From Octopus vulgaris (Eukaryota), in assembly GCA_951406725.2 (NCBI GenBank), contig OX597815.1, positions 166,594,001 through 166,658,000 of the forward strand: a stretch of DNA of 64,000 nucleotides. Reading direction: 5' to 3'. Below, piece after piece: positions 718 to 59,890 of the stretch. Within the stretch, counting starts at the first letter, position 1. Each line of letters begins with the position of its first letter. Made by a program: the position numbers and the translations under genes. Under the pieces are notes generated by a model, which saw only the letters and a program-made list of their open reading frames with translations, had not been told where the DNA came from and did not search any database.

Positions 718-1370
718 AAAAGAACAAATCCACCACCCACAATACAGACAGTTACAGGTTAGAGAACACATAGAAAGGTATGCTAAGAATCTTAATCCTA
801 ATTTCCTAATTTTCCCCTTCTATCAATGTTCACAGAACACCTCAATGCAACAAAGAATGAATAAAGAGGCAACTTTCATCAAAAAATATCTTCCCCAACT
901 AAATATGAGCACATAACAATACAGAACACTACTAACCTTTCAATTAATACCACTAACCCCCATTCATTCCTTACATCATTTACATTACACTTCTTTATCT
1001 AACCTAATTGCACCAAATCCAGGACTACTTACCCCCCTTACACATAATCTTTTTTCTCAGGGACTAATAGACCTGACACCGTTCATTAATCGGTGTGCAT
1101 TTAAACCAATGGATAGTTGTATTCAAAGCAATGATTAGTAACTTACGAAACCGGTATGCTTTTGAATCTCTTTAACAATTCACAATAATGACTTTTATTA
1201 CTTTTATTCCTACCTCAGTTCATCTAATTGTATATATCTTTCGTTACTTTTCGTAAAAAGCCTTTACTTTTTTTGATTTCCAATGTTCATTTCCACTTAT
1301 TTTTCTTACCTTCCCCTTACCTTACCACGTGTAGTTTCTATTTCCTTTTTGTAAGATATTTCTATCATTA
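718..1370 (+). mobile_element. 5'-truncated Penelope-like element: GIY-YIG C-terminus plus 3' region
   Basis: QIHHPQYRQLQVREHIERYAKNLNPNFLIFPFYQ...KEATFIKKYLPQLN (stop at 916) aligns by eye with the C-terminus of ORF 48301..50727; ends at (TA)n. Confidence 0.85.
1121..1167 (+). ncRNA. Minimal type-I hammerhead ribozyme-like motif, A3-U8 core variant
   Basis: AUUCAAAGCA-AUGAUUA-GUA(ACU)UAC-GAA-ACCGGU-A-UGCUUUUGAAU: 10-bp stem I with one bulge, 3-bp stem II, palindromic stem III, GUA site. Confidence 0.7.
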
Positions 1371-1887
1371 TATATATATATATATATATATATATATATA
1401 TATATATATACATATATATATATATATATACATATATATATATATATATATATATATATATATATACATACATACATATATATATATATACATATATATA
1501 TATATATATATATATATATATATATATATATATATATATATATATATATATATATATATATATATATATATATATATATATATATATATATATATATATA
1601 TAATATATATATATATATATATATATATATATATATATATATATATATACATATATATATATATATATATATATATATATATATATATATATATATATAT
1701 ATATATATATATATATATATATATATATATATATATATATATATATATATAGAGATTTCTAAATATAATATATTATATACATATATATATATATATATAT
1801 ATATATATATATATATATATATATATATATATATATATATATATTATATATATATATATATATATATGTGTGTGTGTGTGTGTGTGT
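1369..1887. repeat. (TA)n / (TG)n microsatellite
   Basis: Directly visible. Confidence 0.98.
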
Positions 1888-2362
1888 AAAAGGCTAAGTA
1901 TATTAAAGGGGGTCTGTGGGAAAACTCATTTCAATAAAAGGGTTGGGAGCCACTGTTGAGAACCATCGTGAAAAGGCCGGGAACCACTGATCTAGCTCTT
2001 TGCCCTTTTTAAGACGGCAGGGTGTAATTTGAGGAAGATGCGACTGCTATTTCTAGCAGATCAAGTGACTATGTAGAGTCCCTGTGATGACAAGTTAATT
2101 ATAAAGGTACGATATTTTCAATGACGGTAGACAAGGAAGAACTATGACTGTCAGAGTCAATTAAGTATTGGGTAACCTGCCGAGAAGGCCAGCAGTTTAA
2201 ATTCTGGCACTGTGTCAATTCCTCACTGTAAACAGCAGCGATAGTAGCTGTAGTAGCATTATCAGTAACAGTATAAGCAGCAGTATTTTAGTGAAACTGA
2301 TTGTAATTTTAAAGACTTTGTGATAGGCCAGTTGTCCACCCGGGGAGATATATAACTCTCAT

Positions 2363-2780
2363 TAAGGCGGCGAGGTGGCAGAATCGTCAGCACGCCGGGC
2401 GAAATGCTTAGCGGTATTTCGTCTGCCGCTACGTCCTGAGTTCAAATTCCACCGAGGTCGACTTTGCCTTTCATCCTTTCGGGGTCGATTAAATAAGTAC
2501 CAGTTACACACTGGAGTCTATGTAATCGATTTAATCCCTTTGTCTGTCCTTGTTTGTCCCCTCTGTGTTTAGCCTCTTGTGGGCAGTAAAGAAATAGATA
2601 TTTCGTCTGCCGTTACGCTCTGAGTTCAAATTCCACCGAGGTCGACTTTGCCTTTCATCCTTTCGGGGGTCGATAAATTAAGTACCAGTTACACACTGGG
2701 GTCGATGTAATCGACTTAATCCCTTTGTTTGTCCTTGTTTGTCCCCTCTATGTTTTGCCCCTTGTGGGTAATAAAGAAAT
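2363..2780 (+). mobile_element. Dimeric family-1 SINE with TSD
   Basis: tRNA-like head (tggcagaatcgt...gagttcaaattcc), body repeated twice; flanks atatataactctcat (2348-2362) / atatacaactctcat (2781-2795). Confidence 0.85.
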
Positions 2781-4475
2781 ATATACAACTCTCATCAACT
2801 TTACAGAAACCGAAATTATGAGCATTTTGAGCTAGGAAGATTATACGTGAACCTATGGGGGCCTTAAATATATAAGCAGTTCTGATTTTTAAATAGGAAT
2901 AATGTATTATCTGGCGAAAATTGGTTGACATCTAGTTTACAAATTATAACAGTTACGCGTTGCTTAGATTGGTAGCTTAATTGTAGAAACGAAAATATTG
3001 GTAGACACGGAATGGTCCGGCAATAATATCTACATGACAGTTACTAACGAGAAGAGAATTTTTATTGGTAACCATAAACAAAGTGTTATAGCAGGAATGT
3101 GAAATAATAAAGGTAATAATAATAATAATAATAATAATAATAATAATAATAATAATAATAATAATACATTAAAGTGGTTGGGGGTAGAAAATAAAGGAGA
3201 AGCAAATTAAGGATTCCACTGGAGCCAATAAACAGAAACTTAAATCATTCCCCAGATATTGTTCATTTGGAATGAATGAAACTCAAGTGAAAGAGGAAAC
3301 CTTTTACAATTTAGTTTCTAATATCGCTACTGCAGTGTTATCCGCGATGTCACATCACGCTCATAAAAATGAAAAATCATTAAGGGACCCGCCACATGAT
3401 CGCACAGCTTACCAGAAATACCAGCCAAATCTCAACACATCACACTCGAACCAACTAAAAAATAGGGAAGATACATTGGATAATATAGTCTTCAATATAA
3501 AGTTAAAACAGGATGGTCACGGTTGGAATGCTTTTGATCAAAATTCTCTTCGATTAGAGATGACATGGATGAAAATGCTACAGATATTACAACGTTTTAA
3601 ACCAATATTATTAAAGAGTTAAAGGAAAATTAACTCAAGCGGGAACTGAACTTGGAAAATAAGCTATACTTGGCGACTGGCTCGTGCAATAAAATCTTCA
3701 AAGAGAAAACAACATGAGTTACAGAAGAATAACAGATTTCACCCTCAAAACTACCACAGGCTGGACATGTCATAGCAGACAGATGGCGTATAACTTAAGC
3801 TTTTTAGTTTTGGCAATTGGTCGATGACGATTGTGGTGGTAATGGGGATAGCAATAAAATGGAAATCGTGCGAGATAGATAAACAAATAGAGAGAAAAAA
3901 AAATGTGTGGCAGAAGAAAATAGGGGTAATTATTGATGTGGATAACGAAAAGTAAATAGCGAAACGGATGAATGCATATCGAAGCGAGGTGGATAACTGT
4001 CAAGTCTTTTATACTGGTTTCAAATTTTAACCTGTATAAAACCCGAAAGTATTGTGAAGAGTGCAGTTTACCTGAATGGTAAATAATCTGGAAAGTGAAG
4101 CCAGTGAACCGTTTGTATTGTGGTAATTTGATAGTCGCTTAGTTTTTACACCCCAGAGGAGCCCTATTTAACCTATATCCTATTAACTTAAAAGCTTTCA
4201 ATAACTATTATATTTAGCCTTTTTTTATATTATCAACAATTTTATATAATCGCTACTATACTCATAAAAAAAGAGCTGGTACTTATTTTCTTCTAATCTC
4301 CTGCAGTATAAGACTCTTGAAGGTGATCGTCTTACATTTGCGTCTGTTGCCATGCTTTGTCTATGAGTTAGAAAATTCCTCATGGTATGCCATTTTGGTA
4401 ATGTGTAAATTTACAAATAAAATTTGGTAAGAGAAGAAGGAATCGGAAAAAATGGTAGAATGCTGCACTAAATAT

Positions 4476-4690
4476 TGGTTTCAAATTTTGGCACAAGGCC
4501 AGCAAGCTCGTGGAAGGGGATAAGTCGATCGCATCAACCCCAGTGCTGAACTGGTATTTATTTTATCGACCTCAAAAGGATGAGCAGCAAAGTCAACCTC
4601 GGTGGAATTTAAACTCAGAACGGAAAGACAGACGGGATGCCGCTAGGCCCTTTGCCCGACGTGCTAAGTATTCAACCAGCTCATCGCCTT
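4476..4690 (-). mobile_element. tRNA-derived SINE, family 1
   Basis: Family-1 consensus, reverse complement. Confidence 0.8.
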
Positions 4691-58424: not shown

Positions 58425-58723
58425 CCAACAGCTTGGGTTTCAGGGGACCACAGCTCTTCTATATCCTTCCTAAATGCCTGAGAGACCTACATGGTGTGCA
58501 TGTGGGTTTCTTTAAAACAAACCGGATCTCTTCTTGTCAGGGGTTCCGGATGAACCTACCTCTCGGCAGGAAACACAGATGCGGACAGCGGCGTCGAACT
58601 CCCTTGTTGACCAAGTGCCATGGATCAGAGGTGGTTTCACATACTAGTATAGCTCATTCAACGGTGGTGCCCCAGCATGGCCGCAGCTTTCGGGCTGAAA
58701 CCTTTTTAAGGATTTAAGGATTT
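58425..58723 (+). mobile_element. CR1-type LINE 3' end (ORF2 C-terminus plus tail)
   Basis: NSLGFRGPQLFYILPKCLRDLHGVHVGFFKT / DLFLSGVPDEPTSRQETQMRTAASNSLVDQV resembles invertebrate CR1-like ORF2 ends; tail stem-loop followed by ttaagga repeats. Confidence 0.7.
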
Positions 58724-58770
58724 ATGTATGTATGTATGTATGTATGTACGCATGTATGTTTGCATGTAAA

Positions 58771-58988
58771 CAAGGGGGCGATGAAACGTTCCTGGTTTTG
58801 GGTAAAAGAAAATACAGGAGGAGCAGTTAATTATAATTTTATCCAGCGTAATCCCTTCTCTGATTCATACACTTATTGTAGCGGTCCTTCAGATTTTCTA
58901 ACCCCTGTAAAAGAATCCGGAAGGTTAGACCTCCAGCCATGCTTTTGTGCTACCCTCAAAAAGCTAGGAACTTTTCAGTACCCTCTCG
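58771..58988. mobile_element. Mariner-type MITE
   Basis: Imperfect TIRs caagggggcgatgaaacgttcctggtttt / aaaagctaggaacttttcagtaccctctcg followed by ta. Confidence 0.6.
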
Positions 58989-59836
58989 TACACACGCACA
59001 CACACACACACGCACACACACACTCACACACACACACACACACATGTCAGATCCAATCACAAGGCTTTGGTCAGCCCGAAGTATACTAGAAGACACTTGT
59101 CGAATTTGCCACGCAGTGGAACTGAAACCGGAACCACGTGGTTGGGAATTAAACTTCCTGCCACAAAACCACGTCTGCGCCTATATATATATATATATAT
59201 ATATACACATGTTTTTAAGTGTGTGTGTATATGTACGTAAGTACGTGCATACTTATGTATGAATCATTTGTAAAAAATTACATCTACTACTACTACTACT
59301 ACTACTACTACTACTACTACTACTACTACTACTACTACTACTAATAATAATAATAATAACAATAACAAAATGAATAATTTCAGCTGCTTTAACTCTATAT
59401 TGTCGCAACCGGATTCACTGTAATATCGTAATTGGTAGTATTTGTAAAGAACTGCGTTACTTTTATCCGGAACTAATATAGAGGTCGTTGGCCTAGATTA
59501 AATCACTACGTTTATATATACATATATTATACGTACATACATACATAGACATACAGCGAAGGTAAGCGCATACCTACTATTATCTTGATAGTTATTAACA
59601 CTTGAACGTAATATAATATTTCAGAATTTCGTTTTATTTTTGTCCGTACACGTACGTAAGATTCTTTGTTGAGGATCTGAAATCGATATACTATAGTATA
59701 AAAAAAGCAGGGATAACAACATTAATATATATATATATATATATATATATATATATATATATTATATATATATATATATATATATATATATTTGTAAAAA
59801 ATGAAGTTTGAAAATGCTGCTATATTAGGCAAATTT

Positions 59837-59890
59837 TAATTTTTAACATGTTTCGGTTCTTGAAATGACGAACCTTATCAAAAAAAATTA
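59837..59890 (-). ncRNA. Minimal type-I hammerhead ribozyme-like motif, U3-A8 core variant
   Basis: UAAUUUUUU-UUGAUAA-GGUUC(GUCAUUUCAA)GAACC-GAA-ACAUGU-U-AAAAAUUA, about 45 nt 5' of (TA)n. Confidence 0.65.

Follow-up and report, generated by a model that had tools for sequence, protein, structure and literature searches.

Minimal hammerhead motifs with all four Watson-Crick forms of the 3-8 core pair in probable Penelope-like element tails of Octopus vulgaris

Minimal type-I hammerhead ribozymes have been described in the pseudo-long terminal repeats (pseudo-LTRs) of Penelope-like retrotransposons (PLEs) of metazoa (Cervera and de la Pena 2014, PMC4209133). In the hammerhead core, residues 3 and 8 form a tertiary pair (C3-G8 in the CUGANGA consensus) in the active fold that is not seen in minimal ground-state structures (PMC3884650), and the 2'-OH of G8 is the general acid (PMC6155905). 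Natural U3-A8 is already known at this pair: C3-G8 covaries to U3-A8 among natural core variants, where only U3-A8 is named in the portion drawn on (Perreault et al. 2011, PMC3088659), and the same covariant occurs in Schistosoma PLEs, with ~1,300 matches in S. mansoni (PMC4209133). In the Anolis PLE hammerhead, which cuts only with its protein, C3G or G8C abolishes activity and both together partly restore it (PMC11167929), and in a pairwise scan the G-C swap also rescued a hammerhead (PMC9901934). Here we analyse a stretch of 64,000 nucleotides of the Octopus vulgaris genome (assembly GCA_951406725.2, contig OX597815.1, positions 166,594,001 to 166,658,000), called the window below, in which five such motifs display between them all four Watson-Crick forms of the 3-8 pair. 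We give a probability of roughly 0.75 to the reading that five repeat families each end in a 3' tail with a minimal hammerhead fold of type I, that each has its own Watson-Crick 3-8 form, and that the motifs likely still self-cleave as dimers.

The window motifs share with the metazoan pseudo-LTR hammerheads the type-I order, a short stem I, a minimal palindromic stem III, an extra base between 9 and 10.1, G10.1-C11.1, the location in a PLE 3' repeat and many truncated solo copies (PMC4209133). A short palindromic stem III and a PLE association are likewise shared with the small PLE variants cleaving as dimers (Lunse, Weinberg, Breaker 2017, via PMC6765202). Judged on their letters, the motifs belong with the minimal type-I PLE hammerheads by every testable feature except the literal C3/G8. 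In contrast, the consulted rows of Fig. S3 of PMC4209133 have C or U only at position 3 and no cephalopod, whereas a purine at position 3 is fixed here in amplified families. The partly active G3-C8 of the Anolis Poseidon hammerhead is a laboratory mutant (PMC11167929; PMC9901934; review PMC8495972), whereas it occurs here in natural families, and the A-U and U-A forms that gave no rescue in a type III construct (PMC9901934) are natural in the families described here. In a search of literature text that did not extend to Lunse et al. 2017, the mutagenesis papers of 2006-2008 or figures, natural G3-C8 was not found (the engineered swap only), nor was natural A3-U8; the consulted portions of a bioRxiv retrozyme preprint, PMC10085705 and PMC7151607 held nothing on either form.

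The five motifs reported by an initial annotation of the window were all recovered from its letters with the cores and places given there. Each has the complete minimal layout of stem I, N3-UGA-N7-N8-A9, an optional extra base, stem II, GAA, a palindromic stem III, H17 and stem I':

1125..1162, forward strand: minimal type-I hammerhead, A3-U8 (A3=1131, U8=1136); stem III palindrome at 1150-1155; predicted cut after A17=1156
47936..47970, reverse strand: minimal hammerhead, canonical C3-G8 (C3=47966, G8=47961); extra A after A9; predicted cut after U17=47940
51440..51477, forward strand: minimal hammerhead, U3-A8 (U3=51443, A8=51448), within the 3' pseudo-LTR of a young PLE; predicted cut after A17=51474
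54231..54280, reverse strand: minimal hammerhead, G3-C8 (G3=54273, C8=54268); extra G after A9; stem I of 7 bp; predicted cut after U17=54238
59840..59886, reverse strand: minimal hammerhead, U3-A8, of a second U-A PLE family (U3=59881, A8=59876); predicted cut after U17=59845

With a motif descriptor that left positions 3, 7 and 8 free, the window gave six matches, compared with a mean of 0.07 and a maximum of 2 across 100 block-wise dinucleotide shuffles, and all five motifs are thereby confirmed as real rather than descriptor noise. U4 G5 A6 N7 N8 A9, G12 A13 A14, A15.1-U16.1 and H17 are kept in 5/5, and the motifs have G10.1-C11.1 within the layout of stems I and II together with the palindromic stem III. 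The 3-8 pair is Watson-Crick in 5/5, with the literal C3/G8 of CUGANGA in one and the published U3-A8 covariant in two, while the A3-U8 and G3-C8 motifs depart from the CUGANGA consensus. Individual stems differ in quality: the A-U motif at 1125 has a stem I that, with a bulge, reaches 1121-1167 and a stem II of at best 3 bp with a 3-nt loop (the descriptor scored 4 bp with a 1-nt loop), and stem I of the 59840 motif sits in a U run where its register is ambiguous. The extra base between A9 and stem II is present in the C-G and G-C motifs.

Every motif lies 5' of a (TA)n tract, as had been annotated; the tract begins 201, 98, 50, 141 and 46 nt behind the motifs at 1125, 47936, 51440, 54231 and 59840, respectively, and ~12% of window positions per strand also have such a tract within 210 nt. 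One of these tracts adjoins the A3-U8 element and is likely its insertion target:

1369..1867, no strand assigned: 3'-terminal (TA)n tract of the A3-U8 element

Several PLE families are nested on shared (TA)n tracts in the window, and its hammerhead density is ~10x that of the sampled genome (6 in 64 kb vs 13 in 1.34 Mb).

The question of chance was addressed on 134 evenly spaced 10-kb stretches of the genome (1.34 Mb), scanned with positions 3 and 8 free. An excess of complementary 3/8 combinations, whose absence had been named beforehand as grounds for rejecting the idea, was indeed found: 12 of 13 matches were complementary (6 U-A, 3 C-G, 3 G-C, 0 A-U), compared with 18 of 60 (30%) in 40 shuffles of the sample, which gave 1.5 matches each; over the shuffles, chance descriptor matches were complementary 24-30% of the time. 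The corresponding binomial p of 5e-6 treats related copies of a family as if they were independent and so overstates the case; the matches were therefore also clustered into families, which gave the same picture: 8/8 credible multi-copy families have a complementary majority form at 3-8. A ninth cluster, a 3-copy G3-C8 match (L055, L095, L261), was set aside as chance, as it has a weak, G-U-rich stem II and lies antisense inside a GIY-YIG frame. Note that the 154 matches over all fetched loci were not used as a statistic, given that these loci were targeted and overlapping and that six non-complementary copies had been fetched deliberately. Within a family, the stems covary while the loops vary. 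A U3-A8 group in the random sample (L114, L187, L272, L281, L302) displays compensatory changes in stems I and III and three different 6-nt palindromes in stem III; it is also the one family in which C17 occurs, with U3.

Which form the 3-8 pair takes is characteristic of the family. A genome-wide pattern for the G-C family, with 3 and 8 free, gave 591 exact matches, and G3-C8 was found in 97 of the 100 matches listed (9 of these 100 come from one tandem array); an equivalent pattern for the A-U family gave 145 matches, of which the 100 listed comprised 83 A-U, 11 G-C, 4 A-C, 1 G-U and 1 U-C. Reversed-pattern controls gave 0 matches, and a stricter A-U family pattern gave A-U in 30/31. The array, at G000:C2:17908267-17912952, holds nine exact G3-C8 pattern matches at spacings that are multiples of ~166 nt.

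Within the A-U family, G3 and C8 occur together (Fisher p 4e-10, a statistic that ignores descent). This co-occurrence was followed in the 17 listed non-A-U copies, 23 A-U copies and 26 of 30 further family loci, leaving out the 4 of 70 loci without an anchor and, for the tree (built on a projected alignment), copies with <250 aligned letters. The G-C copies have linked markers of their own, at -793 (3/3 G-C vs 0/8 A-U long copies), -585 (3/3 vs 1/9), -415 and -322 (each 4/5 vs 0/13) and -35 (4/5 vs 1/13), and with positions 3 and 8 masked, 6/7 G-C copies and the U-C copy separate from the A-U copies (UFBoot 94). Therefore both bases switched together in one lineage, so that a master lineage differing at both 3 and 8 amplified, the direction being unrooted. 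Both A-C copies in the tree are placed among A-U subfamilies, and the single changes at 3 or 8 look like decay after insertion. G3-C8 is accordingly present in two unrelated PLE lineages of the genome. In contigs of four organisms that span the A-U motif region, no difference at 3 or 8 was seen among the rows listed (contigs presumed to derive from RNA being taken as evidence of presence alone), and one loose-end consensus in organism X18 reads G3-C8 in the A-U family; in the G-C family, no variant above 3% was found at 54273 or 54268 in four runs (coverage in X13 being thin), where loop II varied.

Each of the five motifs is one copy of a different dispersed repeat family. Their annotation as minimal type-I hammerheads in PLE tails is borne out by the reverse transcriptase (RT) and/or GIY-YIG coding sequence found upstream in family members; the A-U, G-C and both U-A families are clearly 3' tails of PLEs, and the C-G family probably is one. 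In the window itself, two such coding remnants precede the motifs:

48244..50727, forward strand: open frame of 827 codons; from 48646, the RT and GIY-YIG protein of the young PLE family, 5'-truncated copy (RVT_1 E 4e-8)
707..913, forward strand: 3'-terminal part of a GIY-YIG endonuclease frame in a 5'-truncated copy of the A3-U8 PLE (tblastn 45% to an intact PLE protein, E 3e-14)

The GIY-YIG of the 48244..50727 frame has a Pfam E of 5e-4, below the family cut-off. An RT followed by a C-terminal GIY-YIG lies upstream on the same strand in the 51440 U-A and A-U families, and the GIY-YIG end in the 59840 family. The 51440 family is 98-100% identical in 120/120 scored matches and has tandem copies 4.4 kb apart in locus L096; the A-U family has tandem copies 4.6 kb apart in L095 and, in L094 and L095, an RT and GIY-YIG ~50-55% identical to the PLE protein of the 51440 family. 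For the 59840 U3-A8 family, the GIY-YIG end is found upstream in 5/20 loci at 54-64% identity. In the G3-C8 family (54231), a long microsatellite-rich tail is preceded in L091-L093 by a distant RT (21% to the PLE protein P0001, with a YVDD motif and a Pfam RVT_1 E of 0.05) and then by a Cys-linker endonuclease frame without Pfam match. The C3-G8 family shows a GIY-YIG end upstream in 1/16 long loci (L315), running on into sequence common to L312; an RT-GIY-YIG frame in L321 was rejected as the gene of this family, since a separate U3-A8-like motif and (TA)n tract close it off, and it is assigned to a neighbouring family. The copies are 5'-truncated, tandem or inverted and inserted at microsatellites, as in EN+ Penelope-like elements. 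A CX2-5CxxC linker before GIY-YIG, a marker tied to the Neptune and Nematis clades (PMC8557442), is found in P0001, L094 and L091, clade placement resting also on an RT tree.

Some structural observations on these families can be added. Full-length copies of the family of window 48244-51477, as at 3212-6840 on the reverse strand of L096, have two overlapping frames: the first (446 codons, no Pfam match) begins just behind the hammerhead, and the second, in -1 phase, is the 784-codon RT-GIY-YIG frame. A T TTT TTA heptamer lies in their overlap with no hairpin behind it and may be a programmed frameshift site. In the G-C family loci L005, L014 and L019 (~1470-1500, oriented), a branch point, pyrimidine tract and CAG resemble a 3' splice site and lie ~20 nt upstream of the G3-C8 motif's stem I, and many copies start right there or form inverted pairs. 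This splice-site-like run is reminiscent of the intron adjoining the hammerhead of Drosophila Penelope.

Co-folding of two copies gave the expected dimer with cross-paired stems I and III as the lowest-energy structure for two motifs (1121 and 51436); the 59837 motif fitted in part, with stem III formed between the molecules. At the gathering threshold, Rfam gave 0 matches in the window, and no hammerhead model appeared up to E 10 in an Rfam scan of the C-G, G-C and A-U motifs; the best 150 of the 364 matches in the E-value scan of the window include microRNA models driven by microsatellites. The expectation that CUGANGA-based searches would miss the variant motifs stands for fixed descriptors, but Rfam misses even the canonical C3-G8 motif, so that the failure is not peculiar to an exchanged 3-8 pair.

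Mechanistically, according to the literature, residue 8 works through its 2'-OH and is held in position by the pairing of its base with residue 3, so that the pair can be exchanged at some cost in rate. Two motifs of a tandem PLE transcript may pair through their palindromic stems III, probably with help from the element's own protein, and a cut after H17 would release a unit-length RNA. Selection would then act on a few master elements, which must keep the 3-8 pair, while dispersed copies would decay freely. As for the paths between forms, C-G and U-A on the one hand and A-U and G-C on the other are each two transitions apart via a wobble pair, and passing between these classes takes two transversions.

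Along these lines, the A-U and G-C forms are likely to still cut RNA, as a prediction, and it stands for us at even odds that PLE lineages of one genome use all four 3-8 forms as working ribozymes, including A3-U8 and with G3-C8 in two unrelated lineages, one of them switched jointly with A3-U8. Several results weigh against this interpretation of the five motifs as cleaving ribozymes of PLEs. In a type III hammerhead, every core double mutant except the G-C swap, A-U and U-A among them, had low activity (PMC9901934), and the minimal hammerheads of PLEs show no monomer activity in vitro and cleave poorly when dimeric (PMC4209133). In addition, stem II of the A-U motif is marginal at 3 bp, the A-U form was met in 0/13 matches of the unbiased genome sample, and for two motifs, C-G and G-C, the active arrangement is not the dimer of lowest energy. 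The assignment of the C-G family to PLEs depends on 1/16 loci, one G-C copy (L235) falls on the A-U side of the tree, and the independent switches are few (~8 families and one subfamily switch) and unrooted in direction.

Part of this evidence would also fit a hammerhead fold kept, 3-8 pair included, for a structural role such as PLE protein binding, RNA dimerisation or the start of reverse transcription, with cleavage by the A-U and G-C forms slow or incidental. The Anolis hammerhead depends on protein to cut, its catalytic mutants insert in vitro, where cleavage is not required, and no RNA-seq reads end at the site (PMC11167929); low activity leaves room for other functions (PMC4209133), and A-U was not rescued (PMC9901934). 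However, the 3-8 pair is specific to the active conformation and absent from minimal ground-state structures (PMC3884650), so its compensation points to selection on the catalytic fold, and none of the five families has lost U4, G5, A6, A9, GAA or the non-G residue H17. We consider such a structural role unlikely, while giving it more weight than the other alternatives. It is considerably less probable that A-U and G-C are dead or neutral cores, their few masters having drifted and amplified without a ribozyme, and that complementarity reflects chance and the choice of well-formed motifs in the initial annotation. Few independent families are involved, Naiad PLEs have been reported to spread without canonical hammerheads (PMC8557442), about a quarter of chance matches or slightly more are complementary anyway, and the 3-copy chance match in the GIY-YIG frame was itself G-C. 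Against such drift, complementarity holds in all eight credible families although the descriptor placed no constraint on 3 and 8, the copies changed at both positions form an amplified subfamily whereas those changed at one are dispersed over different subfamilies, and the stems covary within families while the loops vary. Finally, RUGANNA resembles box C, and weak models of C/D small nucleolar RNAs (snoRNAs; E 4.8-9.8) are among the sole matches that Rfam gives over the A-U and G-C motifs, so that the purine-3 motifs might be box C / kink-turn or snoRNA-like rather than hammerheads. These matches reach 11-12 bits, far under the cut-offs of 35-45, no box D follows, and GAA, palindrome, H and stem I' are present where sister families carry U3-A8 hammerheads; we regard this last explanation as hardly credible.

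Beside the five motifs, the window contains other, mostly decayed, sequences of the same kinds:

5363..5407, reverse strand: weak descriptor match with non-complementary U3/C8 and A-U-rich weak stems, single copy, absent from the initial annotation; probably chance
26448..26482, reverse strand: second copy of the C3-G8 family motif, with a G-U in stem III, from a relaxed scan
51675..51709, reverse strand: third C3-G8 family copy, decayed (U4C, stem III disrupted); it shares one (TA)n tract with the U3-A8 PLE, the two lying tail to tail

The last of these qualifies the statement that U4, G5, A6 and A9 are invariant, which holds for the five motifs by ascertainment and does not extend to decayed copies. 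Another PLE family is represented by a GIY-YIG end at 38240-38641 on the reverse strand (69% to P0001), the tail of which has a decayed hammerhead look-alike with two core changes at 37336-37376 on the same strand, before a (TA)n tract. A broken PLE fragment at 8953-9831 on the forward strand (32% to P0001) is followed by a 100-N assembly gap, and tandem pairs of a 185-bp repeat occur at 2415-2785 and 17237-17605, which we take to resemble a cephalopod short interspersed element (SINE).

Altogether, these families supply natural covariants in each of the four forms for a tertiary pair whose support has so far come from crystal structures, engineered exchanges and a single natural covariant. 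The A3-U8 and G3-C8 sister subfamilies, near-identical elsewhere, form a natural pair for gauging the cost of the swap, and descriptors should leave positions 3 and 8 free but paired, G3-C8 accounting for 3/13 sampled motifs. Compensation at a pair that is peculiar to the active fold indirectly suggests that PLE hammerheads may be under selection for catalysis, even though they cut poorly in vitro and, in one assay, were not needed for insertion.

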